Below are positions 19,018 through 39,804 of a stretch of DNA of 64,000 nucleotides, piece by piece (position 1 is the first letter of the stretch; every line of letters starts with the position of its first letter). The translations under genes were made by a program, and so were the position numbers. Below the pieces are notes generated by a model. It saw nothing but the letters and a program-made list of their open reading frames with translations. It was not told where the DNA came from and made no database searches. Origin of the DNA: a bacterium (GTDB lineage: Bacteria; UBA8248); assembly GCA_965204535.1 (NCBI GenBank), contig CBDBEV010000001.1, positions 2,906,892-2,970,891 of the forward strand, written 5' to 3'.

Positions 19018-19054
19018 CGGGCGCCGGGATAATCGCGGGAATCCCCGGCGCCCG
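19018..19054. promoter_or_regulatory. Intercistronic hairpin (likely mRNA stabiliser)
   Basis: cgggcgccggg ... cccggcgcccg between the binding-protein and permease genes. Confidence 0.5.
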
Positions 19055-19092
19055 CTCATTCCTCCAGCGTGGTGAAACTGCGCTTTCTCAGA

Positions 19093-20115: not shown

Positions 20116-20171
20116 CAGAGCAGGACGATTTGCATCCTTGAACGGGATGATTTAACCAACGCCTCGACTAT

Positions 20172-20576: not shown

Positions 20577-20598
20577 GGCGCATCTCCAGAATTTCTGC

Positions 20599-21006
20599 TC
20601 ATACCACTCTCCAGACCGCAGGCCGGGCCGCATCTCCGACTATCTCCAGAAAACCGGCTTTCGCCTCCTCCAGACTCTGAAGGCATTTGTCCATGATTGC
20701 CCGGGTAATCGGCTCATTGTCCCGGCAATGCCCGGGGCGGAGCTGCTCAATGAATTTCAGGGGTTCCATCGCGGCCTGAAGCGCCGCGCCGGGCTGCCTG
20801 ATGTATCCGTCCAGAGTGGGGCGGAAGGTGTGCGCGTGGTCCATCAACTGGTTTGTGATCCCCTCCGCGTGGAGAGCCGCGTTGAAATAGTGCGTGGCGG
20901 CGAGCATGCACGTCTCGATGATCATTTCGGGGTCGTCGGCGGGATCCAGTTTTCGAAGGGAGGCTTCGATTCTTTGCGCCTTTGCGACGTGGTCACGCGG
21001 TTCCAT
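20599..21006 (-). CDS. Hypothetical protein, paralog of the adjacent gene
   Basis: ATG at 21006 with RBS ggagga; motifs shared with 20172-20576. Confidence 0.72.
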   Translation of the reverse strand: MEPRDHVAKAQRIEASLRKLDPADDPEMIIETCMLAATHYFNAALHAEGITNQLMDHAHTFRPTLDGYIRQPGAALQAAMEPLKFIEQLRPGHCRDNEPITRAIMDKCLQSLEEAKAGFLEIVGDAARPAVWRVV

Positions 21007-21351
21007 TATTGATCTCCTCCGCTTTCCGGTGGGCATTGAAAACGAGGCCATCAATCCATGAATCAAAACCAGACGGGAAATTTTGACGTAAAGTGTCGCT
21101 TGGACGTGGGGCGTATGTCAACTATTCGAAATTCATCCCCTGAGCCACATTGAATTTGAAAACCGTGCCGGGAGATTCCATGAGAAAATTTCACGCTCGG
21201 CAAATGCGACCACATCAATCGGGTTGAATGCCTCTGCAATTCTTTGCCGAGGCGTCTTCAGAACGTCTTGTTTGACTTCGCTTCCTATCAGACACCATAT
21301 TAGGGACACTTCGTGAAACGATAATCTCACATACGAGTGGGAGGCCTACCC

Positions 21352-22542
21352 GTGAATCCAGTCGCTCAAGCGGAAACCACAACAGACATCATCGACGCCT
21401 CAACCGGCAAAAAGATGAACATCATCGATTGCGATATTCATCCCCGAATGCCGAAAGGAGTGCAATCTCTCGTGCCCTATCTCCCCGAGAAGTGGCAGGC
21501 GCGGATCGGGATGAAGGGCGCCCTGGTGAAAGACGAAGCGAACCCCCGGAATACGTTCGCCGTTCCCAGGCGCGCGTTCTTCCATCCTCACCCCGGGGGG
21601 TCCGGGCGAGTGGATGCCAGGCCGCCCGAAGGCGGCCCCATCGGTTCGGACATCGGCTTCCTGGCGAAACAGCTGCTCGACGAACACGACATCAACTACG
21701 CCATCATCGTCGGTCAGGACGCCACGGGCGTCTCGGGAATCCCGGATGCGGACTTGAGCGCCGCCTACGCCTCCGCCTACAACGATTTCGTTCTCACCGA
21801 GTGGGCTTCCACCGACGAACGCTTCAAGGCGTGCATCTGGGTGAGCCCGCGCGATCCGAATCTCGCGGCGGAGGAAATCGATCGACTGGCCGGTCATCCC
21901 GATATCGTCTCGGTCCAGGTTTGCCCGATGGACATCCCCCTGGGCCAGCGGTACATGTGGCCGATATACGAAGCGGCCTCCCGCCACCACCTGCCCGTCG
22001 CGATTCACGGCGGCTCTGAAACCGCCGGCGTCAATCCACCGATGCTGGCCGTGGGAATGCCTTCTTATTTCATCGAGTTACACAGCGGCTTGCCCCAGGT
22101 GGGGTGGATGCACGTGACGAGCATGGTATGCGAGGGGGTGTTCGCACGCTTCCCGAACCTGAAATTCATCGTCCAGGAGATGGGTTACGCCTGGGTCGCA
22201 GGCCTCATGTGGCGCCTGGACAAGGAGTGGAGATCCCTGCGGCTCGAGGTTCCCTGGGTCAAGGAGCCGCCCAGCGAAGTCATTCGCAAGCACGTGCGGT
22301 TTACGAGCCAGCCCGTCGAGGAGCCGCCCAGGCCCGAATTCAACGAGCAGATGCTGAAAATGATCTATGCGGAAGACACGCTTCAGTTTTCTTCCGACTA
22401 TCCGCATTGGGACTTCGACGACCCGCGCTATGTTTTCCCCAACATCGACCCGCAGCTGCACAAGAGCATCTTTTATGGAAATGCGCTCGGCACTTACCCG
22501 AAGATCCATAAACTCGTGGCGGGAGAAAACGGGGAAACCTGA
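21352..22542 (+). CDS. Amidohydrolase_2-family metalloenzyme (possible dinuclear oxygenase)
   Basis: IIDCDIH, AYND, PIYEAA...LPVAIH, EGVF.RFP.LK, SSDYPHWD; ggagg RBS before GTG at 21352. Confidence 0.88.
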   Translation: MNPVAQAETTTDIIDASTGKKMNIIDCDIHPRMPKGVQSLVPYLPEKWQARIGMKGALVKDEANPRNTFAVPRRAFFHPHPGGSGRVDARPPEGGPIGSDIGFLAKQLLDEHDINYAIIVGQDATGVSGIPDADLSAAYASAYNDFVLTEWASTDERFKACIWVSPRDPNLAAEEIDRLAGHPDIVSVQVCPMDIPLGQRYMWPIYEAASRHHLPVAIHGGSETAGVNPPMLAVGMPSYFIELHSGLPQVGWMHVTSMVCEGVFARFPNLKFIVQEMGYAWVAGLMWRLDKEWRSLRLEVPWVKEPPSEVIRKHVRFTSQPVEEPPRPEFNEQMLKMIYAEDTLQFSSDYPHWDFDDPRYVFPNIDPQLHKSIFYGNALGTYPKIHKLVAGENGET

Positions 22543-22952
22543 TGGGAAAGCATATCGTATCCAGGGTGTCGGATTTCCCTCCCGGCGAAAGAAAAATCGT
22601 CGAATTCGAAAACCGCTCCATCGGAGTATTCAACGTCAAGGGCGAGTATTTCGCCTTGAGAAACGTATGCCCCCACCAGGGAGCGCCATTGTGCATCGGG
22701 CCCGTGCGCGGAACCATGGATGCGGAAACGCCTCACCGGATTCAGTATGTGAAAGACGGCGAGATTATCGTCTGCCCCTGGCATTGCTGGGAGTTCGACA
22801 TCCTCACGGGGCGATCCGTATTCAACCCGCACCGCACCCGCGTGAGGGCGTACAAGGTGACGGTCGAGCGGCCGGAGAGTGCAGAGGAAGACCCTTCCGT
22901 GGAAACATTCCGGGTAACGGTGGAGGACGATCTTGTCGTCCTGCACGTGTGA
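22542..22952 (+). CDS. Rieske [2Fe-2S] ferredoxin
   Basis: CPHQG ... CPWH.WEFD; translationally coupled to the amidohydrolase. Confidence 0.92.
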   Translation: MGKHIVSRVSDFPPGERKIVEFENRSIGVFNVKGEYFALRNVCPHQGAPLCIGPVRGTMDAETPHRIQYVKDGEIIVCPWHCWEFDILTGRSVFNPHRTRVRAYKVTVERPESAEEDPSVETFRVTVEDDLVVLHV

Positions 22953-23173: not shown

Positions 23174-23992
23174 CTATTTTTTCCCGGCGGCGGCCGCTCT
23201 GGGCGCGGCCAGCGCCAGGGCGGATGGCGCCCTGCGGAGGCTCAGCATGTAGACCGTCAGCGCTTCGAGATCCTCAGGCTTCAAATGGCCGTAGGCGGGC
23301 ATGGCGGAGCCGGGCGAAACCTTCTGCGGGAACTTGAAATGTTCGATGTGCCACTTCGGGTCCTTCCGGCGCTCGCCCGCAAAGGTCAGGTCGGGCCCGA
23401 CGACCCCGCCGGCGCCCCTGATCTTGTGGCAGGCGAGACAGCCGTTCATCAGATAAAGCAGTTTTCCCCTCTGGATGAGGGGGGCGTCTTTGAGAGCCCC
23501 CGCGTGGCAGGGGCCGCAACTCGCCTGAATGAACCCTCCCCGCAGCAGCGGCTCCTCCCAGAACGCGACTTCGCCGTGGGCGTCCTGGACGCTCGTCGCC
23601 CGGCCCTGGCCCTGGTGGCACACGGTGCAGCCGAACCGCTCGAAGGGATGCGGCGGGATGGTGGGGTGTCTGGCGAAAGGCTGCTCGGCATCCTTGAACG
23701 CCGGGTGCTCGACGCCGCGGTGGCACATGACGCACCTGTCCACGCGCTCGCCGCCGGCCACGATGATTTGCTCGAACTGGTCCCCGCTCGCCAGAGCGGC
23801 CTTGCGCTCCTCTTCGGTTCCGGCTCTTTCGACGAGCATTTCACGGAACGTCCGCTGGTAGCCCCGCCATTCGCGGTCGTAATCCTTCCAGACGGACAAG
23901 AGAAAAAACAAGGCCGCGCAGACGCTCAGGGCGGCGAAGGCGACCACCCACCCGAACGGCACATGGGAATCGTTCTGATTTGAATTGGCCAT
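23174..23992 (-). CDS. Membrane-anchored tetraheme cytochrome c
   Basis: N-terminal TM helix; CVMCH, CTVCH, CGPCH, CLACH; distal Met in SAMP. Confidence 0.9.
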   Translation of the reverse strand: MANSNQNDSHVPFGWVVAFAALSVCAALFFLLSVWKDYDREWRGYQRTFREMLVERAGTEEERKAALASGDQFEQIIVAGGERVDRCVMCHRGVEHPAFKDAEQPFARHPTIPPHPFERFGCTVCHQGQGRATSVQDAHGEVAFWEEPLLRGGFIQASCGPCHAGALKDAPLIQRGKLLYLMNGCLACHKIRGAGGVVGPDLTFAGERRKDPKWHIEHFKFPQKVSPGSAMPAYGHLKPEDLEALTVYMLSLRRAPSALALAAPRAAAAGKK

Positions 23993-24004: not shown

Positions 24005-25501
24005 TCAGTGCAGGCCCGTCGCCTGCCACGGCCATATCCAGGCCCAGTTGGCGCCGCGGAAATAAAGCCCGATGAGCGTATAAATCAGGTAAGACGTCAG
24101 AAAATATGAATACAGGGCCAACGCCCCCATCCGGCTCGACCCCGTGCGCCGCCAGATGTAGAGCGACCCGGCGGCGAAGAGGACGATCAGTATGGTCCCC
24201 GGATTCAGGAGGTCGACCCAGATCTGCGAGGCGCCCGGGACCAGTATCCGCACGGCGTAGTGCTCGTTCAGCCAGGTCAGGACGAGGACGACCGGGATGA
24301 CCGCCGCGACCGACCAGAGCGTGATCCGGCGGCCCTGGCCCGAGGTGAACCAGGTTCCCTGGCCCTCGGGGTTACGATCGATGTAGGGAATGCTCATGAG
24401 GCCGATAATCGCGGCGGCGGGAACGATGACGCCTCCCGCCAGGGCGGAATAGCTCACGATTTCCTGGAGCCCGAGAAAATACCAGGGCGCCTTGGCCGGG
24501 TTGGGCGGATGGTCCGGGTTGGCCAGCTCCTCCAGAGGCGCATCGAAGAAGTAGGCGACGGCGGAGAGGACGGCCACGACGCCCACGAAGACGACCAGCA
24601 TCCGGAAGACCGTATGCGGCCAGCTCATGACCTCTTCTTCGGGGGCCTGCGCCTCCACCATGGGCGTCTTGCCCTCGGCCAGCTCCACGAGCATGTACGT
24701 CTTGTGCGGCGAAAAAGCCGCCGCCTCGCCCCGGGCGGCCACAGAGGGCGGCGCGGGCGGCCGGGAGAGGCCCCCGTCCTTGCGTATCCGCCAGAAATGG
24801 ACGCCCATGAGTATCATCATGATTCCCGGCAGGACGATGACGTGCATGACGTAGAACCGGATCAGCGCGTTCTGCCCCACCGTATCGCCTCCGAGCATCA
24901 GCGTGCGGATGTGCTCTCCTACCAGCGGCGGGTAGCTGGCGATGCTCGACCCGACGGTGATGGCCCAATAGGCGAGTTGATCCCAGGGGAGGAGGTAGCC
25001 CGTGAAGCTCATCATCAGGGTCGCCCCCCAGAGGAGCACCCCGATGACCCAGTTGAACTCACGCGGCGCTTTGTAACTCGCCGTATAGAACACGCGGCAC
25101 ATGTGCAAAAAGACGACGGCGACCATCGCGTGCGCAGCCCAGCGGTGGAGGTTCCGCAGGACGACGCCGTAGGAGACGACGAATTGCAGGTCCTTCATGT
25201 CGCTGTAGGCGCGCTCGGTCGAGGGGACGTAGAAGAACATGAGCAAGGAGCCGGTGCCCAGAAGAATGATGAACAAGAACAGGGAGATGACCCCGAGTCC
25301 CCAGGTGTAGGTGGGTTTTAAGCTGTGAACGTGCGTTCGCGCGGGAAGGACGTGCAGGAAGAAATTCGAGAACATGACGGCCGCGCGATCCAGATCGTTG
25401 TCCGGATAGCCGCGGCGGAAGATCGAGCGGACGACGCGGTTGTCCCTAAGCCACGATACGGCTTTTCCGCGCCCTGATTTCTGCGGGGATTCGGTGACCA
25501 T
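24005..25501 (-). CDS. Cytochrome b of a Rieske/cytb complex (N- and C-terminal domains fused, extra C-terminal helices)
   Basis: [23 protein letters not shown]...H, Qo-like PAKAPWYF. Confidence 0.92.
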
Positions 25502-25510
25502 TGGGGCGGC

Positions 25511-26002
25511 TCAGATCTTGAAATGTTCGGAGGGGGCGACGACTTTGCGCGTATCGACCACGACGCGGCCATCCGGCGATTTCTTGACGAGGAAAAAGTC
25601 GAGCCCCCGGGGCGCAGGTCCCCCGAGCACCTGTCCCCGCCCGTCGAACGTGCTGCCGTGGCAGGGGCACCGGGCCCTCAATATATCGGGAGAGGCGCCG
25701 GGCGCGCCGACGAAGGGGCTGATCACGCAACGGAGATGCGGACAGACGGCGGTGCAGGCCCGGAACCCGTCCTTCTCGCGAAACAGAACGATTTTCTTCT
25801 CTGCGAAAAACGTGATGGACCCCACGGGGTACTTCTCCAGGGAGTCGAGCTTCAGAACCGACTCGCCCTCATAAACGACGTTGGGGAACAGGAAGCGGAC
25901 GTTGGCGAGAACCGGACCCAGCAGGGAGATCAGGAAGGAAACCCAGCCGAGACCCAAAAGCATCCGTCGCCGGGGGGTCTGTTCATCCAGGCTCGCAGTC
26001 AT
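25511..26002 (-). CDS. Rieske Fe-S subunit of a Rieske/cytb complex
   Basis: RRR plus TM anchor; CPHLRC ... CPCHGS.FD; GPAPRGL. Confidence 0.92.
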   Translation of the reverse strand: MTASLDEQTPRRRMLLGLGWVSFLISLLGPVLANVRFLFPNVVYEGESVLKLDSLEKYPVGSITFFAEKKIVLFREKDGFRACTAVCPHLRCVISPFVGAPGASPDILRARCPCHGSTFDGRGQVLGGPAPRGLDFFLVKKSPDGRVVVDTRKVVAPSEHFKI

Positions 26003-26003: not shown

Positions 26004-28049
26004 TCATCCAGTCTCCACCCACTCTTCCTGGAAAGAAAAATTCTCGATGGTGACGGCGCCCGTGGGACAGCGCTGGGCGCAGAGCGAACAACGGATGCAC
26101 TTGTCCGGGTCCATGATCATCGCCGCGCCTCTCTCTCCTGCGCCCCCGGCGGACGTGCCAAAGCGGGCCTGGACCAGAGCCGCCAGGTCCTCTCCACCCT
26201 GAAGGGCTTCGAGGGGAACCATTCGAAGACAGCGTGAGGGGCAGACGTCCACGCAGCCGCCGCAGAGGATGCACCTGGCGCCGTCGAAGATCGGGTTAGC
26301 ACTACAGCGCAGACACCGGAGCCCCTGTTCGACCGCCTCCCCGGGCGAATAACCAAGCTCCACCTCGGCGACGCCGATTCTGCGCTCGATGGGCAGCGCG
26401 TCGGGGTTTCGGCGAGACACTTTCTGGTAGCCGGGATTGACGATGGGAAGGGAAAACCCGTCTCCCGGCTCCTGGAGCAGCGCTTGTTGCAAGGGTTCGA
26501 CAGAGGCCCACTGAAGATGCGTCTGGACGCCTGCCTGACCGCCGGACAGATAGGTGTGAATGGAGCGGGCGGCGCGGTGGCCGTTTTCCACGCCCTCGAT
26601 GAAGATACGGGGACCCATGGCGACGTCCCCGCCCGCGTACACGCCTGGAGCGGTCGTGGCCAGGGTTTCGGGATCAACGCGGATCGTCCCGCGCGGCGTC
26701 GTCTCGACGCCGTCCTCATCCTTGATCCAGGAGAGATCGGAGGCCTGGCCGACGGCGACGATCACCGAATCGCACGGAATCACGCGCCTGGTGTCCGGGT
26801 CGAATTCCGGGCTGAAGCGGCCCTCCTCGTCGAAGACGCGGGTGCACGTCTGGACTTCCAGCCCGACCACGCGGCCTTCTTTCTCCACGATGCGGACGGG
26901 CCCCACCCGGGGCTCGAGCTCGATCCCCTCATCGAGGGCTTCTTCGATCTCGAAATCCGCCGCCGGCATCTCGTCGCGCGATTCGAGGCAGATGACGTGG
27001 ACGTTCCTCGCTCCCACGCGCATCGCCTCCCGGGCCACGTCCATCATCTCGCGCATGAGGACGGCGTCTTCCGTTTGATCGGCCGCGCCCGCGGGGGCAT
27101 CCGCCCCGCCGGCGACCCGGGCGGCGACCCGGGCGGCGTCCATGGCCACGTTTCCCCCGCCGATCACGACGACGCGCTCGCCCAAATCGACGCGGAAGTT
27201 CAGATTCACGTTCAGCAGAAACTCGACGGCCCGGAAAACGCCGTCCGCGTCCTGTCCTTCCATGGGGAGAGAGCGACTCACATGAGCGCCGATGGCGACG
27301 AACACCGCCTCGAAGCCTTCCTCGCGAAGGGAGGAGAGGTTGAAGTCCCGCCCGATGGCCTGGTTCAGCCGAAGCTCCACGCCCAGGCTGAGGATGGCCT
27401 GGATTTCGGCCTGAACGAGGTCGCGCGGGAGCCTGTATTCGGGAACCCCGAGCATCAGCATGCCGCCGGGAACGCCCTGTTTTTCGAAAACGCTCACGTC
27501 ATAGCCGAGCAGGGCGAGATCGTGGGCGCAGGTCAGCCCCGCCACGCCCGATCCGACGACGGCCACCTTTTTTCCTGCCGTCTTTTCCTGTTCGGGCTTT
27601 CGGCGGGCCGCCTCCAGCACCGAAAAATCGTTGATGGTGCGCGTGGAGGGCTGAAAACGGAGGTCGCGCATACTCCTGAGGCTCCGGTGCGAGAAGGAGG
27701 ATTCTCCCTTGCCGGACGACAAATCGGCCTCGACCCCGTAGCGTTCCGTCACGAATCGCTTGAGCGCCCGGATGGCCACCGGCGCATCGATGTTGCCGCG
27801 GCGGCACGCCGCTTCGCACGGCGCCGCGCAGACACGCCCGCAAACCGACGCGAAGGGGTTGGGCCCCCGGGCGATGATGTAGGCGCGCTCGAAGTCTTGC
27901 TCCGAGATGGCGGTCACGTAACCCCGCGCGTCCGTATGGACGGGACACGCGTCCTGGCAGCAAATCGTTTTCCGCCAGTGGTCGTGGCCGGGCAACTCGA
28001 CCCGAAAGGAGCGCTCGGGAAGGGGAGCGTCCCGATTCCCTGAACCCAT
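26004..28049 (-). CDS. GltD/NfnB-like FAD/NAD(P) oxidoreductase with extra C-terminal 2x[4Fe-4S] domain
   Basis: CQDACP, CGRVCAAPCEAAC, VVGSGVAG, GVPEYRLP, VIGGGNVAMD, GGD, RCLRC, CILCGGCVDVCP, CIRCSLCAQRCP. Confidence 0.92.
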   Translation of the reverse strand: MGSGNRDAPLPERSFRVELPGHDHWRKTICCQDACPVHTDARGYVTAISEQDFERAYIIARGPNPFASVCGRVCAAPCEAACRRGNIDAPVAIRALKRFVTERYGVEADLSSGKGESSFSHRSLRSMRDLRFQPSTRTINDFSVLEAARRKPEQEKTAGKKVAVVGSGVAGLTCAHDLALLGYDVSVFEKQGVPGGMLMLGVPEYRLPRDLVQAEIQAILSLGVELRLNQAIGRDFNLSSLREEGFEAVFVAIGAHVSRSLPMEGQDADGVFRAVEFLLNVNLNFRVDLGERVVVIGGGNVAMDAARVAARVAGGADAPAGAADQTEDAVLMREMMDVAREAMRVGARNVHVICLESRDEMPAADFEIEEALDEGIELEPRVGPVRIVEKEGRVVGLEVQTCTRVFDEEGRFSPEFDPDTRRVIPCDSVIVAVGQASDLSWIKDEDGVETTPRGTIRVDPETLATTAPGVYAGGDVAMGPRIFIEGVENGHRAARSIHTYLSGGQAGVQTHLQWASVEPLQQALLQEPGDGFSLPIVNPGYQKVSRRNPDALPIERRIGVAEVELGYSPGEAVEQGLRCLRCSANPIFDGARCILCGGCVDVCPSRCLRMVPLEALQGGEDLAALVQARFGTSAGGAGERGAAMIMDPDKCIRCSLCAQRCPTGAVTIENFSFQEEWVETG

Positions 28050-28059: not shown

Positions 28060-28446
28060 CTATTTCGCCAGGGAGCGCATGAACGCGACCAGGTTCTGGA
28101 GGTCCGCGTCCGAAAGAACCCCGCCCCAGGGGGGCATCAACGGCGATTTCCCGACCGCGACGCCGCCAAGCTTGGTGATCTTGGCGATATATTCGTCCGA
28201 TATGGTCTTCATGTATTTGGCGTCGGTGTGATTCCTCGGCTTCGGGTTGAGCGCCTTGGCCGCGGGGCCGTCGCCCTTGCCCGATGCGCCGTGGCAGGAG
28301 GCGCAAAGCTGCTGGTATTTGACGTTGCCGGCCGCAACGTCGCCTTTCTGCTGAGCGGCCCCGTCATCCGAAGACCAGAAAAAGAGCGCAACTGCAAGCG
28401 CCAGGCCGGCGCAGATGAGAAACCTTCTCGATCGAGACATTCGCAT
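28060..28446 (-). CDS. Monoheme periplasmic cytochrome c
   Basis: Signal peptide, CASCHG.SGKGDGP, MPPWG. Confidence 0.92.
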   Translation of the reverse strand: MRMSRSRRFLICAGLALAVALFFWSSDDGAAQQKGDVAAGNVKYQQLCASCHGASGKGDGPAAKALNPKPRNHTDAKYMKTISDEYIAKITKLGGVAVGKSPLMPPWGGVLSDADLQNLVAFMRSLAK

Positions 28447-28493: not shown

Positions 28494-31160
28494 TCAAAGC
28501 GTCCGGGGGACAAAGCTTAAGCTCGTCAGCGAATGCTTGTGCGGAGATTCTCCTATCTTCTTCAACTTCCCCTTGCCCAGCTTGTAGCGGTAGCGGTTGG
28601 TCAGGGGGTCCGGCACCCGGTGGACCACCGAATTGGCCGGGTTCTCGGGAAAGCCGAAATAGGCGAAGGTGACGCCCTCGCGAACCGCGTCCGTGACCAT
28701 GGCCACCGCGGTGAAGCTCCCCTTGCTCTTCTTGATATTCCCGGCCTTCATGAGCTCGGTGAACGTCTGCTCCTTGCCGTCGACGCCGATGTATCCGCCC
28801 GTCTGCACGAGGAGGTCGTCGTTCTCGATGGCCACGAGGTCTCCTGATTCGATGCCCCGGGCGCCGGCGTCTTTGGGGTGAATTTCCAGGAACTGCTGCG
28901 GCCAGCGCTGCATGATGTAGGGCCGCCGCTTGTCGTCGTAGCCGGATTGCCAGAGCTCGTTGATCCGCCCGTTCGTCACCCACAGTTCGTCCCCCTGCGG
29001 GGTGACCCGGTCGTAGAAGTCCTTGAAATCCTCCCAGTAGCTTTTCAGCAAGACCGCCTTGCCGCTCTGGGTCCCGAAGGAGGTGAGCCACTTCCGGTGC
29101 ATGGTGGGCCCCTCGGGGGTTCCGAGTTCCAGGGTCTCGTCGTGGAGGCGCTTCGTCCCGACGAGTTCGCCCTTGACCATGCGGATGGGGGTTTGGATGC
29201 CGTCGGTCCCGTATTCGCGGAGCAATTCGTGGCCCCGTTTCCCCTCGCGCTTGGCCTTCACCACGAGCGGGTGGTAATTGAGCACCCCCTTGCGTCCGAA
29301 GCGGGCCGCTTCCTCGAAGATCTGGTTGCTGTCCTTCCAGTCGAAGCCCTTGAAGCCCATCTTCCTCGCGAAGGCCGCGATGATCCACCAGTCGGGCCGG
29401 GCCTCACCGGGGGGGTCGGCGAACTTGCTGTAGAGCCTGAGGCGGCGCTCGCCGTTGCACCGGGTGAAGTCCTCCTCGCCCCAGGTGGCGGCCGGGAGCA
29501 CCAGGTCCGCATACTCGGTTCCGATCGGGGAAACGGGATAGATGTCCTGGTGGGCGACGACCATGCCGCCGGAATCCACTCGCTGCTTGAGCGCGTCCAC
29601 CGCCGTATCGACGTCGAAGCTCTCGATCTGGTGCGGGTTGCGGCGCGTCAACCGCTGGAAGACGTCCATCAACTCCTGAGACGCCGCCATGGCCTGGCAC
29701 CAGGTGGTTCCGATGACCCATGCGAAGCGCACGTGGCCGTCCACGACCCAGCGGTCGAGGTCGATCTCCTTCTTGCGGCGCCCCGGCGCCTTCTCCGGCG
29801 ACAGGCTCCTCGGATAACCGGCCCCTCCCATCCAGCCCCGCTGGTGTCCACCGCCGCGGGAGATCACCCGGCCCGGCCGCGACCCGGCGCCGCAGACCAG
29901 CCCCAGCGCCGCAAAGGAAGCCGTGTTCCCGAAACTGTTGCACCAGTAATTGCCCTTCTCGAGCATGAACGAGGTCTTCTTGCGGGTTCCGTCGGGCTTG
30001 GGCTTGGCGAGGATTTCAGCCGTCTGGCGTATGGACGCCGCGGACACGCCCGTTATCTTCTCGGCGCGCTCCAGTTCGGCGTAGGGATAGCTCATGATCC
30101 ACTTCTTGTAGCCCTCGAAGTCCGTCCCGTACTTGCCCCAGGTCGTGACCCACTGCCAGGGCGTGTTGCGGGTGCCGCGCCCCATGCCGGAGCCGATCTC
30201 CCACTTGTTCGAGATTTTTCGCGCGATCCACTCCTTGTCCTCCCAGCCGTTCTCGAGGATCAGGCGGATGATGGCCAGGTGGAGCACCGTGTCCGTCCCC
30301 GGAATGACGGGGAGAAAGAGACCGCCGCGCTTCTCGCCGTAGGCCACGCCCGAAGTCTTGCGCGGCATGGCGAAGACGAGTTTCTTGCTCGGCGTTTTCC
30401 CGCCCATGATCCACGAGGTGAACAGCACCGACTTGGTCTCCCAGGGGTCGACGCCCGAGAAGAAGATGACCTCGGCCTCTCCCCAGTCGTCATAGGAGGC
30501 GCTGAAGGGGTTGATGCCGGAAAAATCGATCCCGGGCGTGTCCTTGCCGGGGCCCGGCTTGTCATGCGGGGCGTAGGCCGGCGTTCCGATGGCGCGGAAA
30601 GCGAGCTTGGAGATGGCGTAGGTGTTCTCGAAATACTGGTAGGAATACGTCTTCATCGCCCAGGCGTGCTCGCCGAACTTGTCCAGGACGTGCTTCGAGA
30701 TTCCCGCCATGACGCCCACCGCCGTATCCCACGAGACCTCCTGCAAGGTACCGCGGACCCGCATCATCGGCTGGCGCAGGCGGTCCTGCGAGGGTTCGTT
30801 GGGGTTGTAGAGCTTCTTGGCCAGGACGCCGCCCCGGATGGAGTGGTTCCCCCCGACGTTCACGACATTCGCATCCTTGTCCGGCATGACGACGACGTGG
30901 TGGGGACTGCCGTCCACCATGATGATGTTGTGCATGTTCGGGCTGACCCAGCCGCCGCTCATGATGGCGGTGGGGAAATCCACGCGCAGGGCGTTCTGGC
31001 TCGCCTTGGGTCCGCCCTCGCGACCGATCGGCCAGCGGTAGACCTTGTACCCGCAGCCCACGATGCAGTAGTCGCACGCCGTGGTGAACACCTCCGCGTT
31101 CGGCGGGGGGAGGGGGACACTGTCTTCCGCAAGATAGTAGTTCGTCACCTTTCCTGCCAT
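28494..31160 (-). CDS. idrA: AioA/IdrA-family molybdopterin oxidoreductase large subunit, most like iodate reductase IdrA
   Basis: PLPP..A....ACDYCIVGCGY [3Fe-4S] motif, VNVGGNHSIRGG, EKG.YW, SRGGGHQRG, NGERRLR, NGRINE. Adjacent to a Rieske subunit and two peroxidases. Confidence 0.8.
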   Translation of the reverse strand: MAGKVTNYYLAEDSVPLPPPNAEVFTTACDYCIVGCGYKVYRWPIGREGGPKASQNALRVDFPTAIMSGGWVSPNMHNIIMVDGSPHHVVVMPDKDANVVNVGGNHSIRGGVLAKKLYNPNEPSQDRLRQPMMRVRGTLQEVSWDTAVGVMAGISKHVLDKFGEHAWAMKTYSYQYFENTYAISKLAFRAIGTPAYAPHDKPGPGKDTPGIDFSGINPFSASYDDWGEAEVIFFSGVDPWETKSVLFTSWIMGGKTPSKKLVFAMPRKTSGVAYGEKRGGLFLPVIPGTDTVLHLAIIRLILENGWEDKEWIARKISNKWEIGSGMGRGTRNTPWQWVTTWGKYGTDFEGYKKWIMSYPYAELERAEKITGVSAASIRQTAEILAKPKPDGTRKKTSFMLEKGNYWCNSFGNTASFAALGLVCGAGSRPGRVISRGGGHQRGWMGGAGYPRSLSPEKAPGRRKKEIDLDRWVVDGHVRFAWVIGTTWCQAMAASQELMDVFQRLTRRNPHQIESFDVDTAVDALKQRVDSGGMVVAHQDIYPVSPIGTEYADLVLPAATWGEEDFTRCNGERRLRLYSKFADPPGEARPDWWIIAAFARKMGFKGFDWKDSNQIFEEAARFGRKGVLNYHPLVVKAKREGKRGHELLREYGTDGIQTPIRMVKGELVGTKRLHDETLELGTPEGPTMHRKWLTSFGTQSGKAVLLKSYWEDFKDFYDRVTPQGDELWVTNGRINELWQSGYDDKRRPYIMQRWPQQFLEIHPKDAGARGIESGDLVAIENDDLLVQTGGYIGVDGKEQTFTELMKAGNIKKSKGSFTAVAMVTDAVREGVTFAYFGFPENPANSVVHRVPDPLTNRYRYKLGKGKLKKIGESPHKHSLTSLSFVPRTL

Positions 31161-31172
31161 GATGCGTCCTCC

Positions 31173-31715
31173 TCAGCGCTGTACCGGCGCCAGATTCGAG
31201 TGATAACCATACAGCAGTCCCATCATCCCGATCGCGTAGATGTCGTCTCCTCGGGTTTCCAGAACCACCTGGGGGAGGCTTTCGGTGGCCTGCCCCGCCC
31301 CGACCATGCCGTGCTTCATCAGATCGAAGGTCGTCAGATGGAACGGGCACGGGCCGATGGCCTTGTGCTGCGCGTTATAAGTCCCCTGCAGGGGGCCGCC
31401 CATGTGGGTGCAGAGGGTGCTGAACGCCACCACGTCCCGCTTGGGGCCGACGCCGCCGCCGGCTTGAACGCCCAGTTTGACCAGCATGCACCCCGAGAAG
31501 ACGTCCTTCCACGGGTACTGGAAGAATTGCGGCGCATCGACCTTGAGGGCGCTGAGCGTCCCGATTTTCTGGCGGGGATACTCCGCCCTTTGCAGGGCCG
31601 CTCCGGCCAGGCCGGGGATGCCCTGGACCAGCACGATGCTCACGGCGGTTCCGCCGGCCAGGAGAAAGGCGCGCCGCGAGACGCAAGGCCGGGTTTCCTT
31701 GGCTTCCTGAGTCAT
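31173..31715 (-). CDS. idrB: AioB/IdrB-type Rieske small subunit with Tat signal
   Basis: SRRAFL twin-arginine leader, GGVGP..DVVAFS.LCTHMG, CPFH.T.FD, GQATESLPQV, GLLYG. Confidence 0.8.
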   Translation of the reverse strand: MTQEAKETRPCVSRRAFLLAGGTAVSIVLVQGIPGLAGAALQRAEYPRQKIGTLSALKVDAPQFFQYPWKDVFSGCMLVKLGVQAGGGVGPKRDVVAFSTLCTHMGGPLQGTYNAQHKAIGPCPFHLTTFDLMKHGMVGAGQATESLPQVVLETRGDDIYAIGMMGLLYGYHSNLAPVQR

Positions 31716-31725
31716 GGATTCCTCC

Positions 31726-32865
31726 TTACGGCATGGCCGCATACGGCGGCAGTTCGGGGGGCCGGACGAGCAGGGGCTTATCGCTCGAGAGCGATTCCAG
31801 AAACGCCAGCAGGTCTTCTTTCTCCTCGTCCGAAAGTCCCAGTTTCTTGATGAGGGGACTCTTGTTCGCATCCTCGCCGCCCCCTTCGTCATAAAAATCG
31901 ATGACCTCATCCAGTTCGAAAAATGCGCCGTTGTGCATATAGGGCGCAGTGTATTTGAGCTCCCTCAGGCTCGGGGTGCGGAACCTCCCCTTATCGGCCT
32001 CGCGCTTGGTGGTGTAGAAGAGCCCCAGGTCCCGGTCCGCCTTGCGGTAGACGGATTCGGGGACGCCGCGGATCACGTGCTGGTAGCGAAGCGTTATCTG
32101 CCTTAAAGGATCTTCCTCGAACGCGGGGCTCTTGGGAACGCCGACGTTGTGGTAGTCCTCATCCGAGAGGAGTGCGCCGTTGTGGCACTGGACGCACCCG
32201 GCCTTTCCCTGGAAGAGAGCCAGCCCGCGCTTCGCGCTGTCCGAGAGCGCCTTCTCCTCCCCTTTCATGAAGCGGTCGAAGGGCACGTCCTTCGCGTTGG
32301 AAACCACCGTGCGCTCGAAGGCCGAGATGGCCCGCCAGGCGTCGTCGATGGTCGGCCAGGGGGATCCGAACACCGCCCGGAAGCGCCTGACGTATTCGGG
32401 GACCTGGCGCAGGCGCTCCTCCATCATCATGGTGTCGCCGTTGCCGGCCACGTTGCCCGTGGCGGCGCTCTTCGCCTGCGCTTCGAGGCTCGTAGACTCG
32501 CCCGCCCAGAAGAGTTTTGCGTAGTAGGCGGAATTGAGGATCGTCTGGGAATTGCGCCAGTGCTGCGTGCCCGGATAGCCCCGGCTCAGATCGCCCCCGT
32601 CCCCCCAGCCGCTCTCGGGGCTGTGGCAGGAGGCGCACGACGTGCTGGCGTCGCCCGAGAGGCGGGCGTCGAAAAACAGCAGCTTGCCGAGCTCCACCTT
32701 GGCGGCGGACATGGGGTTGTCCGCGGGCACCGGGACAGGCGGCAAGGGTCCCAGCGGAGGGAATTTCCCCTCCTGGGCCGCGCTTGCTCCTCCCACCAGA
32801 AGTGCGGCGATGAAGCATACGGCCATCGTGGAACCCAGGAAGCAGTTTTTGATTCGCGCGTTCAT
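31726..32865 (-). CDS. Di-heme cytochrome c peroxidase/MauG family (IdrP-like)
   Basis: LGKLLFFD.RLS, CASCH, CVQCH, FRTPSLR, TAPYMHNG; start at 32865 with RBS gagga. Confidence 0.9.
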   Translation of the reverse strand: MNARIKNCFLGSTMAVCFIAALLVGGASAAQEGKFPPLGPLPPVPVPADNPMSAAKVELGKLLFFDARLSGDASTSCASCHSPESGWGDGGDLSRGYPGTQHWRNSQTILNSAYYAKLFWAGESTSLEAQAKSAATGNVAGNGDTMMMEERLRQVPEYVRRFRAVFGSPWPTIDDAWRAISAFERTVVSNAKDVPFDRFMKGEEKALSDSAKRGLALFQGKAGCVQCHNGALLSDEDYHNVGVPKSPAFEEDPLRQITLRYQHVIRGVPESVYRKADRDLGLFYTTKREADKGRFRTPSLRELKYTAPYMHNGAFFELDEVIDFYDEGGGEDANKSPLIKKLGLSDEEKEDLLAFLESLSSDKPLLVRPPELPPYAAMP

Positions 32866-32875
32866 GGCCGTCTCC

Positions 32876-33991
32876 TCAATTATCGCCGAGTTTGCGAAGT
32901 TCATAATCGGGAATTTTCGGCGCCGCAGCAAAAACCGTCTCGCCCGAGAGGCTCTTAAGGAACGCCACCAGGGCCTTCTTCTCATCCGCAGTCAGCCCCA
33001 GCGGCTTCAAGCGCGAGCTCTTGTTGGGGCCGCTCCCGCCGCCCCTGTCGTAGAAGGCGACGACGTCTTCAAGCGCGGCGAGTGCGCCGTTGTGCATGTA
33101 GGGCGCCGTCCGGGCGACTTCGCGCAGGGTCGGCGTGCGGAACTTGCCCCGGTCGCTCTCCTCTTTGGTCACGACGTAGAGGCCGGGGTCGGCCCTCAGG
33201 TTCATGAAGTTCGGGACGCCGATGACCTTGTTGAAGCGCCGGAAGGTGATGTGGCGCAGCGGGTCCTTGAATATCTGCTCGTTCTCGGGAACGCCGAGCG
33301 CGTGGAATCCGCCGTCGCTCAATAGCGCGCCGTTATGGCACTGAACGCAACCGGCCTTTCCGCTGAACAGGGCGAGGCCTTTTTGCGCCTCGGCGGAAAG
33401 GGCCTTTTTATCGCCCTTCAGGTAGTTGTCGAAAGGCGCGTTCTCCGAAGCGATGGTGTGCAGGAACGCCGCGATGGCCTTGAGCGCGCCGCCGAAGGAG
33501 GGCTCCCCGCCGTAGACCTCCTTGAATTTCTTCACGTAAAGCGGCACCTGCTTGAGCCGCTCGGGGAACAGCCGCCCGTCGACCAGCATGAAGTGGGCTT
33601 CGGTCAGGTGGTCCCGCACGAGCGTGGGCAGGTCGGCCCCGCTCAGGCGCCCGTCCCAGAAGACGCGCTTGTTGTAGGCGGCGTTTAAGAGCGTCTGGGC
33701 GTTCCGGAAATACTTGCTTCCCGGATAACCCGCCGAGAGCGCCTGCCCGTCGCCCCATCCCTTCGCGGGCTGGTGGCAGGCGGCGCAGCTGATCCCTCCG
33801 TCCCCCGACATCCGGGGGTCGAAGAACAGGTACCGGCCCAGTTCGGCCTGCGCGGGCTTCTGGGCCTTGGGCGCCGGCAGGGGCGCGAGAGAAGCCCCCA
33901 GGCCCGCGGCGGGGAGCAGAACCCAGGCGCTCAGCAGGACTCCGCAGAGTATCCGGCGCCGGACAACGCGAACTGATTTCATTCTTCGCAC
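32876..33991 (-). CDS. Di-heme cytochrome c peroxidase/MauG family (IdrP-like)
   Basis: LGRYLFFDPRMS, CAACH, FWDGR, CVQCH, FRTPTLR, TAPYMHNG. Confidence 0.9.
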   Translation of the reverse strand: MRRMKSVRVVRRRILCGVLLSAWVLLPAAGLGASLAPLPAPKAQKPAQAELGRYLFFDPRMSGDGGISCAACHQPAKGWGDGQALSAGYPGSKYFRNAQTLLNAAYNKRVFWDGRLSGADLPTLVRDHLTEAHFMLVDGRLFPERLKQVPLYVKKFKEVYGGEPSFGGALKAIAAFLHTIASENAPFDNYLKGDKKALSAEAQKGLALFSGKAGCVQCHNGALLSDGGFHALGVPENEQIFKDPLRHITFRRFNKVIGVPNFMNLRADPGLYVVTKEESDRGKFRTPTLREVARTAPYMHNGALAALEDVVAFYDRGGGSGPNKSSRLKPLGLTADEKKALVAFLKSLSGETVFAAAPKIPDYELRKLGDN

Positions 33992-34137
33992 CTCCCTGGC
34001 TGGCTGTTCTGTCTTCTGACGCTATCCCCTATCGGACATCCGGCCCGACCGCGCCGGATGAGAATATCGACCCCGGACTTCGGGGTTGTTGAAAGAGCCG
34101 TGTGGCTCGGGCATCTCCTCATCGGTCGGGTTACAAA

Positions 34138-34592
34138 TCAACTCCCCTCCTTAAACAGGGGACAAAGGCAACCCCCCCTACCCCCCCTTGTCAGGGGGGT
34201 ATAAAAAAGCACCCCCCGCAAAAAAGGATCAACTCTCCCCTTGAGGGGGTCGGGCTTTCCCCTCGGGAAGACCGACGAAGAGCTAAGGGCGAAGCCCGCA
34301 AGCGATTCGGTGGGGGGACATGCCACGGATAAAAACTCCCCCCACCACATCGGCCTTCGCACAAACCGCTCGGCCTCTGTCGGGCTTCCCGAGGGGAAAG
34401 CCCGACCCCCTCAAGGGGGGAGTTGATTGTTGAGCGCTCTACAAGGGGGGTTGCTCTTTCTTGCCCCCCTGACAAGGGGGGGTAGGGGGGGTTGTCCCTT
34501 CCGGTGAAATTCGATTGATCTGTAGGGGTCGCATATATGCGACCCTGCCTTTTTTCGCCGCCGCTCATGGGCCGCATGTATGCGGCCCCTAC
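34138..34592. repeat. Nested REP/MITE-like palindrome cluster
   Basis: Outer caacccccctacccccccttgtcaggggg pair encloses an actc.ccccttgagggg ... ccctcaaggggggagt pair; GTAG REPs follow. Confidence 0.8.
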
Positions 34593-34803
34593 AAAACCAT
34601 CGCCTTTGGAAACCATGGGCCTTTTCAGGGAAGCTTTTCGGGCGGCCCCCATCAGGCCGTATTCGACGTGTTCTCCGGTGAGGCGCCGGGACAGGACGGG
34701 CGAACCCGCGGATGCGAATCGAACGGTTCGCTTCTCGAGTGTTTTCACTGCATGCGGGTCGGTTCTCATTTTCCCGGGTCTTCCTCGTGTTGAAAATCCG
34801 GTC

Positions 34804-35547
34804 TTATTTCGCAGAAAACGTGAAGTCGGCCGTCTTCTTTCCTCCGGTGGAAATTTTGATCCTTTTCTTCTTGACCCCCAGGGCCGGGTGCCACGCCCGC
34901 AGCGCGTATTTCCCCGGCGGGACGTCTGCGATCTCGAAGCGCCCGTCCGCGCCCACGAGCGCGTAGTAGGGGTTCCGGGCCACGAAGAGGAATCCCTTCA
35001 TCCAGTTGTGCACGTCGCACTCGACCCGGACGATGGGGCTGCGCCGCACCTTCGCCCGGCGGACGACCTTCTTCCGCTGTTTGGGCTGGGAGATGTTCCA
35101 CATGGAGCGCTTCGCCCGGCCGATGATCTCGTAGGTGTGGATGTTGTGGTGGGCGGCGTCGCTGTTCAGGATGGTGACCTTGCCCCCCTCGGCGACGACC
35201 TGGAGGTAGGGCACGTAGGCGCACTTCTTCTGGTCCACCACGGCGCTCTTGATTTTCCCGGGATACGCCTTGCCCTTTTTGACCTTGTCGAGATAGACGA
35301 CCACGCCCCTCAAGGCGCCGTCTTTCGCGTCCACCTCCTGGCGGGTGACCTGGCCCTTGCCGCAGGCGTGCTGGTCCTTGGTGATGATGTATTTGACGGG
35401 GGCGGGAGGCTTTCCCTCGAAGCTCACCTTGCCGGTGATGGTTCCGCCGTCTTTGACGGATGCGGCCTTGTACTTCGCCAGGGAAGCGTTCGGGGCAAGG
35501 AGGAAAGGCAGGGACAAAACGAATGGCAGGATGAATGTACGAATCAT
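34804..35547 (-). CDS. Secreted carboxypeptidase-regulatory-like/cupredoxin-like protein
   Basis: Signal peptide; GGTITGKV, DQKKCAYVP, NSD..HHNIH, CDVHNWM, G.F.I.DVPPG.Y....WH. Confidence 0.75.
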   Translation of the reverse strand: MIRTFILPFVLSLPFLLAPNASLAKYKAASVKDGGTITGKVSFEGKPPAPVKYIITKDQHACGKGQVTRQEVDAKDGALRGVVVYLDKVKKGKAYPGKIKSAVVDQKKCAYVPYLQVVAEGGKVTILNSDAAHHNIHTYEIIGRAKRSMWNISQPKQRKKVVRRAKVRRSPIVRVECDVHNWMKGFLFVARNPYYALVGADGRFEIADVPPGKYALRAWHPALGVKKKRIKISTGGKKTADFTFSAK

Positions 35548-35835
35548 TGCGAGAATTCCCCCACGAAATCTTGCATCGGATCACGGCAACCCTGTCGTCA
35601 ACTGTTCCGGGTCGTTTTCATCCTCCTCATCGGCGGCGCGCCGGCGCGGAAAGGGAGCGTCCTTTCCGCCTCGGGCGTGCTTTTTATGAACGTATTCCTG
35701 CTTTTAATATAAGGACTGCGGCTGAATGTTGCAACAGGATGGAAATGCGGTTTTCCCCCGGTGAGCGGGCCGTTGGGAAAGCCCTGTATGCGTCCCCCGG
35801 AAACCGCCGACGCCTCTTTCCTAACCCTGAAAACC

Positions 35836-36197
35836 AACCCCCCCTACCCCCCCTTGACAGGGGGGTATGAAAAGGCGACGCCCCGCCGCCGAGATGAACG
35901 CAAATCAACTCCCCCCTTGAGGGCCTGTTGAAAAACCCCTCGTCGAGCGGAATTGATTGCCGGAATGACAATCAAAAGCACATTCACCCGTAGGGGCGGC
36001 CCCCTGTGGCCGCCCTGCCCCGTGGCTACGCTTCGCACGGACAGGCACGGGGGCCTGTCCCTACGGTGAACAATTCGATGATCGGGATTCCTTCTCCACC
36101 GGAGGGTTTTTCAACAGACCCCCAAGCGGGGAGTTGATCTTTTTTTTGCGGGGGTTGCTCTTTTTACCCCCCTGACAAGAGGGGGCAGGGGGGGTTG
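35836..36197. repeat. Nested palindrome cluster containing a ~199-bp MITE-like element (35922-36120)
   Basis: TIRs ggcctgttgaaaaaccc / gggtttttcaacagacc (16/17 match) sit inside two outer inverted pairs and enclose GTAG REPs. Confidence 0.75.
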
Positions 36198-36348
36198 CAT
36201 TCCAGCCGGGGGAAGGGCGGCCACGGTCGAACTCCCCTCTTCGGGAAGTTCGACACCCCTACGGGTTCGTTACGTTACGATCGGTTTTCGTAGGGACAGG
36301 CCCCCGTGCCTGTCCGTGGCCCCCGTGCCTGTCCGGGGCCGGGCGTCC

Positions 36349-37911: not shown

Positions 37912-39804
37912 ATGATGTTCAAAGAGAAATCGATAAACAAGCTCTACGCTTTCGCGCTGGCGGCCGTGTTCGCGCTGACGCTGGCGGGCTGCGGCGGTGG
38001 CGGCGGCAGTGCTGCTGCGCCGGACCCGGAGCCGCCCGCGATGCCGGAACCGACCGCGGAGGAGACCTGCGAGGCCGACGGCGGCCGGTATAACGAGGAC
38101 GGCTCGTGCACCTCCGCCGCGGACCTTGCCGAAGAGATGGCCCTGAGCGGCGCGCAGGAAGCCGCCATGGCGGCGTATATGGCGGCGGCGGCGGCAGTAG
38201 CCGGCGCGGTGGACCCAGTGGCGATGGCGAACGCGCAGGCGCACGCAAACGCGGCCATGACAGCATCCGCCTCGGCGGCGGCGGCCACGGATTCGGCGAC
38301 GGCCATGGAGCACCAGATGGCGGCAGAAGCGGCCCGCGACATGGCGATGGAAGCGGCCGGCGAGCGCGGCCTGGCAATCACCAAGCTGGCGAACGCAAAC
38401 GCCAACCAGGCCGCCATCGACAGCGCCAAGCTCGTCGGCGTTGCGGTTCCCGCCCCGATATCCAATGCGGGAAGAGTGGGCAGGGCGATAGGAGCCGCTG
38501 CGGTGGCGACAGCCACGAGCGCCGATGGCAATGTCGACGGTAACAATGATACTACTGCAGATGATACTACCCAACAAGGCGCAGTGGTCACGGCATCGGC
38601 GAGCGACACCGGCAGTGGTCCCAGGTTAACGGTATCGGCGACGCCGGTCGGCGACTCCAACACCGCCAACAACGCCGTTACTTCACTGAGGAGAGGCGAA
38701 AGCCCAACGGCGATCACGACGCGCGGCGGCTGGGCGGGCGTCGAATTGGTCGCGTCCGCTGCTAATTCCGCTACTGACGCTGCGGCTACGGGTTACAGGC
38801 AGAATGCCCTCGTCTTCACGGACATCAATCCGCCCGCGCAGAGTTACAATACTACGGCTGAAACGGGCGCTATTCTTGATCTCTCTACAGCAACCGTAGT
38901 AGACACCACTGGAGATGGGACAGGAAATGCACCTGCAGTAAACCGGTCTGTAATCACCGGCGAGATTCCGGGAGACGGAAGCCACTTCACGGGAACGTTC
39001 AATGCGAACCCCACAGACAACAACCCGGCCCGGTCGGGACGGTTCTTCTGTCCTTCCGGCACGCCCTGCTCCATAAGCGTAGACGCCTCGGGTGTCCTCA
39101 GGGGAGTTGCGGGCTATCAGTTCCACCCCGCCCGAGCCGGGACTGTGATGCGGGGAGACTCGGACTACCTGACCTGGGGCGTTTGGGTGCACGTTCCAAA
39201 CGGCTTGCAAGCAACGAGCGCAACCGGTCTTACGAACCCCGCAACCGTCGCCGCATTCGCCAGCGGCAGGGACCCGTTCCAGGTCCCGGCCGATCTCACG
39301 GGCACGGCGACGTATAACGGCGTCGCGAACGGCCTGTATTCGGCGGGCGGCATGGTCGAGTACTTCGAGGCGGACGCCAGCCTGACGGCCGATTTCGGCG
39401 GCAGGGGCGCCAACGATTCCACTCCCGCTACACCTGGGAGCGACAACGGCCTCTTGGGAGCCGTCACCGGAAGCATCTCCAACATCAAGGCGGGCGGCAT
39501 GGACGTCGAAGGTTCGCTGACGCTGGGTAGGGCGCCGCTGGTCGCCGGTGATCCTGCGGCTGCGGCTGCTCCTACTGCTGGTTCCCCGGCTAACATCTTC
39601 AGAGGCAACACCCAAGGCACCCTGGGCGGCAGGGCCATGCAAGGTTCCTGGACAGGCAGGTTCTACGGTCCCAACAGGGCGCAGGGCGTGGCGGTCCGAA
39701 CCGAATTCCCCACGACGGCTGCCGGCACCTTCGGCGCCAGAACGCCTGCCGGCGCCCCAGGGGTCAGCATCCTGGGCGCATTCGGCGCGCACAGGCAGGA
39801 GTAG
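37912..39804 (+). CDS. Surface lipoprotein with C-terminal TbpB-like beta-barrel
   Basis: RBS aggagg; lipobox LAGC plus GGGGG; Ala-rich stalk; DYLTWGVW, GTATYNG.A.G, LTADFG, W.GRFYG, AGTF, terminal GAFGA. Confidence 0.8.
   Translation: MMFKEKSINKLYAFALAAVFALTLAGCGGGGGSAAAPDPEPPAMPEPTAEETCEADGGRYNEDGSCTSAADLAEEMALSGAQEAAMAAYMAAAAAVAGAVDPVAMANAQAHANAAMTASASAAAATDSATAMEHQMAAEAARDMAMEAAGERGLAITKLANANANQAAIDSAKLVGVAVPAPISNAGRVGRAIGAAAVATATSADGNVDGNNDTTADDTTQQGAVVTASASDTGSGPRLTVSATPVGDSNTANNAVTSLRRGESPTAITTRGGWAGVELVASAANSATDAAATGYRQNALVFTDINPPAQSYNTTAETGAILDLSTATVVDTTGDGTGNAPAVNRSVITGEIPGDGSHFTGTFNANPTDNNPARSGRFFCPSGTPCSISVDASGVLRGVAGYQFHPARAGTVMRGDSDYLTWGVWVHVPNGLQATSATGLTNPATVAAFASGRDPFQVPADLTGTATYNGVANGLYSAGGMVEYFEADASLTADFGGRGANDSTPATPGSDNGLLGAVTGSISNIKAGGMDVEGSLTLGRAPLVAGDPAAAAAPTAGSPANIFRGNTQGTLGGRAMQGSWTGRFYGPNRAQGVAVRTEFPTTAAGTFGARTPAGAPGVSILGAFGAHRQE

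Follow-up and report, generated by a model that had tools for sequence, protein, structure and literature searches.

Which substrate is served by a molybdoenzyme of the arsenite oxidase (AioA) family whose gene is preceded by two di-heme peroxidase genes, and where do its electrons come from? This question is raised by a bacterial gene cluster (GTDB lineage UBA8248) located on the minus strand at positions 28494–33991 of a 64,000-nt stretch of DNA (the window: GenBank assembly GCA_965204535.1, contig CBDBEV010000001.1, positions 2,906,892–2,970,891). Comparison of sequences suggests, with a probability of roughly 0.65, that the products of the four genes form an iodate reductase of the established IdrABP1P2 type, active in the periplasm, and that the five genes downstream encode a dedicated electron-supply complex. 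Taken by itself, the four-gene module belongs to a known family and is an ordinary example of it. The unusual part is its pairing with a flavoprotein-bearing module of the cytochrome bc type, which lies outside the coordinates of a preliminary description of the locus; that description stopped one gene short of it. The pairing is not described in the literature that we found, in a search that mostly excluded subscription papers and with the proviso that figures or supplements may show the module.

Gene Content and Order of the idr Cluster

The four genes are arranged in the order peroxidase, peroxidase, Rieske subunit, and molybdoenzyme, and their coordinates and spacings (gaps of 10, 10, and 12 nt, with starts based on ribosome-binding sites) agree with the preliminary description. 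The outer di-heme peroxidase gene (IdrP2 position; 32876..33991) starts at GTG 33991 or, more likely, at ATG 33982. The inner one (IdrP1 position; 31726..32865) starts at ATG 32865, giving a protein of 379 amino acids (aa); its longest open reading frame (ORF), of 419 aa, was rejected as having an over-extended start. The two proteins are paralogs, as had been claimed: each carries two CxxCH motifs and matches PF03150 above the cut-off (142 bits for the outer and 147.5 bits for the inner protein), and they share 49% identity. They are 52 and 61% identical, respectively, to their counterparts in Azonexus hydrophilus NCP973, for which iodate reduction has been demonstrated (PMC13455634). The idrB gene (31173..31715) starts at ATG 31715 and encodes a Rieske subunit of 180 aa, 59% identical to NCP973 IdrB and 42% identical to AioB of Pseudorhizobium banfieldiae NT-26, with the twin-arginine translocation (Tat) motif SRRAFL and the sequence CxHx18Cx2H at residue 102; the longest ORF, of 245 aa, was again rejected for an over-extended start. 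The idrA gene (28494..31160) encodes the predicted molybdenum-bis(pyranopterin guanine dinucleotide)/[3Fe-4S] catalytic subunit of 888 aa, which has the large-subunit sequence Cx2Cx3Cx70S (C29...S107). The same Fe-S, Rieske, and Tat motifs are listed for the Idr of Azoarcus DN11 (PMC10149662). As in other Idr systems, the two peroxidase genes lie directly upstream of idrBA; the Sec signals of their products were judged by hydropathy alone.

Both peroxidases have Tyr (Tyr314 in the outer and Tyr325 in the inner protein) where classical peroxidases have Met, as in an aligned bacterial peroxidase of known structure. This Tyr was present in 60/60 inner and 69/70 outer copies with a pattern match, among 71 copies of each. 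Tyr is a heme ligand in MauG, and the best NCBIfam matches of both proteins were the MbnH/MauG models, below the cut-off. A search of the PDB found no solved Idr structure.

The preliminary description regarded the order peroxidase, peroxidase, small subunit, and large subunit (P-P-B-A) as rearranged. The name idrABP1P2 differs from the order of transcription. P-P-B-A is not a rearrangement: idr clusters are normally transcribed in this order. The order idrP2, idrP1, idrB, and idrA is shared by Pseudomonas strain SCT and Denitromonas strain IR-12 (PMC10989891), and the two peroxidase genes are stated always to precede idrAB (PMC8801600). On the NCP973 plasmid (NZ_CP151407.1), two peroxidase genes are followed by the small-subunit, large-subunit, and cytochrome c genes. 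We also counted gene orders among 122 pooled loci with a large subunit at least 45% identical, 86 of which had sufficient upstream DNA; the count leaves out 24 distant loci from metagenomes, five AioA loci, and six regions that had been retrieved with another aim. P-P-B-A was found in 85 of the 86 loci, which were collected by similarity to the query with duplicates included and are not independent. In the exception (L055:7083–12081; P-P-A), the second peroxidase gene lies 45 nt from idrA with no idrB between them, and a complete second cluster (L060) is present in the same metagenome-assembled genome (MAG). A Deltaproteobacteria-labelled locus (L030:12863–17022) has an idr cluster followed by two cytochrome c genes and a third di-heme peroxidase gene.

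Phylogenetic Position and Active-Site Residues of IdrA

The identity of the 888-aa protein is 59% with NCP973 IdrA, compared with 31% with NT-26 AioA. We calculated a maximum-likelihood tree (LG+G4) from 39 chosen rows, from which five fragments shorter than 690 aa and near-duplicates were left out. The Idr references were the validated NCP973 enzyme and Arabian11_MAG_19, an idr entry in Table S2 of PMC13455634, with SCT, IR-12, and the Halorubrum/Dehalococcoidia outgroup clade left out. The protein fell on the Idr side of a branch with 100/100 support, together with both references. Forced grouping with four AioA sequences was rejected by the approximately unbiased (AU) test (p-AU 6e-11); the tree program flagged one long AioA branch.

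The large subunit contains the motifs CDYCIVGC, HDKPGPGKD, and GGHQRG, and the AioA counterparts that the preliminary description had given are identical to those of NT-26 AioA. These differences had been read as a possible sign of a sister clade with a new substrate. We rejected this use of the motifs, which are common to the whole IdrA branch: among the 78 Idr-side rows, Asp30 was found in 75, Asp200 in 75, and Arg441 in 76, the remainder being mostly gaps.

Eight second-sphere residues are given for NT-26 AioA (D169, H199, R201, E207, K413, R447, H451, and E453) (PMC10448176), and all eight were invariant in 5/5 AioA rows. The window IdrA keeps the equivalents of His199, Lys413, Arg447, and His451, and it has Ser for Asp169 (S173), Lys for Arg201 (K201), Asp for Glu207 (D207), and Arg for Glu453 (R441). 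At AioA positions 169, 201, and 207 the window residue is also that of NCP973, and the Arg at position 453 is the one present in 76/78 Idr-side rows. Mutation of Asp169 or Glu453 in NT-26 AioA lowered the activity by 30 and 65% (PMC10448176). An Arg at the mouth of the funnel, as placed by the alignment, and the loss of two acidic residues would suit an anionic substrate.

The four retained residues could also be expected of a divergent arsenite oxidase that passes its electrons to the bc-type complex for reverse electron transport. The scores above cut-off for TIGR02693 (455.5 versus 359.05) and TIGR02694 agree with such an enzyme; however, the validated NCP973 IdrA carries the same annotation, which indicates that these models do not discriminate. 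Arsenite oxidase was rejected on the basis of the tree, the AU test, and the four changed residues. Furthermore, AioAB is described as having no peroxidase pair in its neighborhood (PMC8692401), and flanking peroxidases were absent from 5/5 AioA loci fetched, whereas two lie upstream of idrBA in the window. We regard an arsenite oxidase as extremely improbable.

It is very probable that the enzyme is an iodate reductase, as judged from its sequence and its gene neighborhood. A sister enzyme acting on bromate, chlorate, or antimonate would be compatible with the distinctness of the window clade (100/100), the weak placement of the base of the Idr side (68/51), and the variation of the substrate loop along the branch (HDKP, HDNP, HDTP, and HDQP). 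However, HDK and Asp207 of the window enzyme are also present in the validated enzyme of NCP973, which is nearer to it (59%) than to the published oxygen-minimum-zone IdrA L056 (50%), and a search of the genome gave no chlorite dismutase; such a substrate appears very improbable. The earlier proposal of a halogen-oxyanion reductase stands, therefore, in that the cluster is of the IdrABP1P2 type and not an arsenite oxidase, and falls in regards to the rearranged order and the new-substrate clade. Its assignment to a different lineage applies at the genus level only: the closest named records (L009, L011, and L012; 95–97%) are labelled Nitrospinota, the next are Methylomirabilota/Rokubacteria (77%), and the published tree already includes IdrA from Nitrospina and Rokubacteria.

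Two other enzymes on the Idr side have unusual residues. NCP973 IdrA (L076:7983–10661) has Cys at two funnel positions (Pro202 and Arg441 in the window), unique among the 78 rows, and the two could form a disulfide. An IdrA-branch protein encoded in a P-P-B-A cluster (L027:10001–12652) has a strongly altered substrate loop, with Trp replacing Asp200, which is invariant elsewhere, and its C-terminal cofactor motif is altered as well; as an enzyme for another substrate, it is a stronger candidate than that of the window.

The bc-Type Module and the Ten-Gene Block

The operon continues past idrA on the same strand with gaps of 47, 10, 1, 9, and 12 nt. Nine genes, from the outer peroxidase to a tetraheme cytochrome c, are spaced 1–47 nt apart on one strand, and they form a conserved ten-gene block with a copper-type gene upstream. 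The first gene after idrA encodes a monoheme cytochrome c of 128 aa (28060..28446, minus strand; PF13442/PF00034) that travels with the bc-type module; it heads the five-gene module in three loci with no adjacent idr (L166–L168). The second encodes an Nfn/GltD-like Fe-S flavoprotein of 681 aa (26004..28049, minus strand) with Fer4_20, Pyr_redox_2, and a C-terminal dicluster region, which has no hydrophobic (membrane) segment and whose best solved relative is 9bov/9bp5. The third encodes the Rieske subunit of the bc-type complex, 163 aa (25511..26002, minus strand). Among solved structures, Kuste4569 of Kuenenia (9rk4, E 1.8e-15) ranked first and Kustd1480 (9rk3) third; Ser and Phe occupy the tuning positions as in Kustd1480, which is only suggestive of a high potential. 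The fourth encodes a 498-aa fusion of cytochrome b and subunit IV (24005..25501, minus strand; PF00033 and PF00032), which keeps the four b-heme His residues (His119/133/220/235) and has Gly where housekeeping copies have the heme cN Cys. In the alignment, this Cys was absent in 7/7 flavoprotein-linked cytochromes b and present in 2/2 housekeeping copies. The last gene encodes a tetraheme cytochrome c of 272 aa (23174..23992, minus strand) with four CxxCH motifs, anchored to the membrane by a single N-terminal hydrophobic segment.

In each of L166, L167, and L168 the module is preceded by a small regulator gene, whose product is presumably Rrf2-like. In L166, formate dehydrogenase-like and NuoF-like genes are located upstream of the module.

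The first gene of the block (34804..35547, minus strand) encodes an exported protein of 247 aa with a type-1 copper-like loop, CxxHxxM (C177-D-V-H180-N-W-M), and a C-terminal beta-sandwich. Its Pfam match is CarboxypepD_reg-like, amicyanin was matched only at E 0.41, and the protein may bind copper. The gene lies about 100 nt from the outer peroxidase gene in L002–L004, L008, L010, and L013, and directly upstream of it in L084, L029, L169, and L170. In the window, the two genes are separated by a repeat-bearing intergenic stretch of about 780 nt (34010..34793, no strand) that carries a genome-wide palindromic repeat and lies outside the system. This stretch gave 712 blastn pieces in its own genome, concentrated at about 34600–34150; it is mostly absent in the same six loci (L002–L004, L008, L010, and L013) and is skipped by one RNA-library contig (run X3). 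A 192-aa ORF within it (34191–34769) was rejected as repeat-derived. Palindromic intergenic repeats also occur at 35800–36340, and related pieces number in the hundreds in the genome.

Proposed Electron Flow

The known Idr model comprises periplasmic reduction of iodate to hypoiodous acid (HIO), abiotic disproportionation of HIO, and removal of peroxide by two di-heme proteins (PMC8692401). In the window system, the Tat signal of IdrB, observed as a motif, would carry IdrAB to the periplasm, as with known Idr. IdrA would then reduce iodate to HIO by four electrons through oxygen-atom transfer at Mo, and peroxide removal or electron relay would fall to the two di-heme proteins of the His/Tyr type. 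HIO would disproportionate abiotically, because the only Cld-family (PF06778) gene of the genome (L158:398–1216) encodes a heme synthase that depends on hydrogen peroxide, with a score exceeding the NF008913 cut-off. Dismutation of HIO by a chlorite dismutase (Cld) was rejected on this ground.

The co-encoded complex probably feeds Idr. Menaquinol would be oxidized at its outer site, the first electron passing from the Rieske subunit to the tetraheme cytochrome c, to the cytochrome c or the copper protein, and to Idr. The second electron would cross the b hemes and leave through the Fe-S chain of the flavoprotein to NAD+, a bifurcation of the type proposed for anammox bacteria; the exit through the flavoprotein is suggested by the lack of heme cN. 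The genome contains futalosine menaquinone genes and two NuoH matches, and COQ7 was not found in it, which alone does not exclude ubiquinone. A separate housekeeping Rieske/cytochrome b with the cN Cys and one heme-copper oxidase are also present.

The direction of flow at the flavoprotein is a tentative matter: reduction of NAD+ is favored, at rather less than even odds, and input from NADH is nearly as likely. Fe-S flavoproteins of the Nfn/GltD-like family are reversible, an inner site rewired for flow either way would be compatible with the missing heme cN, and the flavoprotein has LESR in place of the YRR of NADP-binding relatives, which we take as a preference for NAD. The same iodate reductase could accordingly be served by a self-contained NADH-to-iodate chain, in which the flavoprotein is the point of entry and electrons pass from NADH through the b hemes to quinone or Idr. 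However, the two NuoH matches indicate that NADH can be oxidized with proton pumping, and electron entry in this direction has been argued to waste energy (PMC12954380). This chain is unlikely.

Distribution of idr and the bc-Type Module

We searched for IdrA in 41 relatives plus five further records; the class comprises 51 genomes. IdrA was found in 13 of 22 same-genus genomes at the full threshold and as a contig-end fragment in one more (G005), and the flavoprotein ortholog was found in the same 14 of the 22. Neither was found in the other eight same-genus genomes, four of which are 98–100% complete. Two other genera also have the two halves adjacent: in G029 the order of the block is unchanged, and in G045 the copper-type gene and idr have the bc-type module upstream of them. 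A Calditrichaceae MAG (L029) has idr followed by a more distant version of the module.

Several of the distribution results weigh against a complex dedicated to Idr. The bc-type module lies downstream in only 15 of the 73 idr loci with at least 5.2 kb of downstream DNA, and 13 of these 15 have IdrA at 93% identity or more, so they are not independent. The closest IdrA relatives not labelled Nitrospinota (77%; L014 and L092) have no such module downstream. Moreover, in G049 and G057 the module was present and no idrA was found, and in G055 it lies on a different contig from idr, which indicates that it is not iodate-specific; an idr-exclusive module was rejected on these grounds. Other difficulties lie in the functional assignment. 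The tree contains one validated IdrA (NCP973), which groups with the window clade with support of just 68/51. In anammox bacteria, bifurcation to NAD(P)H is still a proposal and the complexes keep heme cN (PMC12954380), and marine aerobes carrying idr have been shown to reduce iodate but not to grow on it anaerobically (PMC11445184).

The occurrence of the module apart from idr in three genomes and its absence downstream of 58 of the 73 idr loci would also be expected if a normal Idr and a bc-type module of general use, for low oxygen or redox stress, were joined in one operon, the two being co-inherited and the complex not specifically feeding Idr. IR-12 respires iodate with no dedicated quinone oxidoreductase (PMC8692401). 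On the other hand, the adjacency is found in three arrangements or lineages (the window and G029, the reordered G045, and the Calditrichaceae L029), and in the window the gaps are only 47 nt between idrA and the cytochrome c gene and 10 nt between the latter and the flavoprotein gene. Co-inheritance of this kind is quite improbable, and a complex dedicated to Idr is the reading that we prefer. Its most extended form, a self-contained iodate chain in an uncultured, probably sponge-dwelling genus in which a cN-less complex splits the electrons of menaquinol between iodate and NAD+, is doubtful as a whole.

Host, Transcription, and Genome Context

Four RNA-library runs from three studies, three of the runs labelled sponge metagenome, contained pieces about 89–96% alike across the block. 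Among the matches listed, run X2 gave seven pieces of 485–2837 nt across the block, and the aligned pieces on a control stretch were at most 664 nt (at most 220 nt in X2); run X8 gave longer pieces on the control stretch than on the block. The contigs give no strand or level and the runs were chosen for holding the stretch; together with X8, this means that transcription is only hinted at. These matches are a weak hint that the block is transcribed and that relatives live in sponges. The promoter scan found one site, compared with 1.7 expected.

Beside the block (16994–22952) lie genes for a TAXI-type TRAP transporter, an amidohydrolase, and a Rieske ferredoxin, an adjacency that is not conserved in close relatives. 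Positions 36352–64000 form a mobile region with tyrosine integrases, an IS66 transposase and neighboring DruA-domain gene (43424–44293), and a MobF relaxase (54214–57105). A lipoprotein-like ORF of 630 aa on the plus strand (37912–39801) matched no Pfam or NCBIfam model at the thresholds applied.

Implications

The block bears on how electrons are delivered to Idr, for which published models assume a shared bc1 complex and cytochrome c551. It also bears on the role of flavoprotein-bearing Rieske/cytochrome b complexes, for which NAD(P)H production in anammox bacteria is a proposal. The lack of heme cN removes the competing quinone-reduction route discussed for anammox, and a high-potential partner is named; together these make the window complex a cleaner test case. 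If the most extended reading is true, the complex would carry out quinol-based electron bifurcation to make NADH, its high-potential sink being defined, unlike in the anammox complexes, and sponges would be sites of bacterial turnover of iodate to iodide. If the hosts are sponge symbionts, this would be a previously unreported site of iodate reduction; no description of sponge idr was found in our search of the literature, from which subscription papers are mostly absent.

Comparison with Known Systems

The window cluster shares the P-P-B-A order with the IdrABP1P2 islands of NCP973, Denitromonas IR-12, Pseudomonas SCT, Azoarcus DN11, and Ca. Methylomirabilis iodofontis. Its P2, P1, B, and A proteins are 52, 61, 59, and 59% identical to those of NCP973, and the motifs for the Fe-S, Rieske, and heme sites and for Tat export are the same. 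In both, idrA is followed by a gene for a c-type cytochrome, although the window product had no BLAST match to the NCP973 one at E 1e-8. Unlike the published islands, the window adds the flavoprotein-Rieske-cytochrome b-tetraheme module downstream and the copper-type gene upstream, and neither a sigma-54 two-component pair nor moaA adjoins the cluster. The idr cluster of IR-12 is described as having no quinone oxidoreductase (PMC8692401).

With AioAB of NT-26, the window enzyme shares the fold family, the [3Fe-4S] motif, a Rieske small subunit, the B-A order, and four Mo-proximal residues. It differs in its low identity (31%), its four changed second-sphere residues, the two peroxidase genes upstream, and its position on a separate branch.

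In regards to the anammox Rieske/cytochrome b complexes (Kuenenia Kuste4569–4574 and Kustd1480–1485), Kuste4569 is the best solved match of the window Rieske subunit, and the best solved match of the flavoprotein, 9bp5 (an NfnABC entry), is the one used to model Kustd1483 (PMC12954380). Both kinds of complex have a b6-like cytochrome b with a multiheme c partner, the Kuenenia cytochrome b and flavoprotein being compared by description only, and in the window, as in the anammox type, a cytoplasmic Fe-S flavoprotein is encoded among the bc genes. The anammox complexes have separate four-helix cytochrome b and subunit IV chains, with heme cN (PMC12954380), whereas the 498-aa window protein is fused and lacks the cN Cys. 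The c-type subunits are hexa- or octaheme proteins in anammox bacteria and a tetraheme protein in the window. Finally, the anammox complexes have an HAO-like protein as partner, whereas the partner of the window bc-type complex would be Idr.

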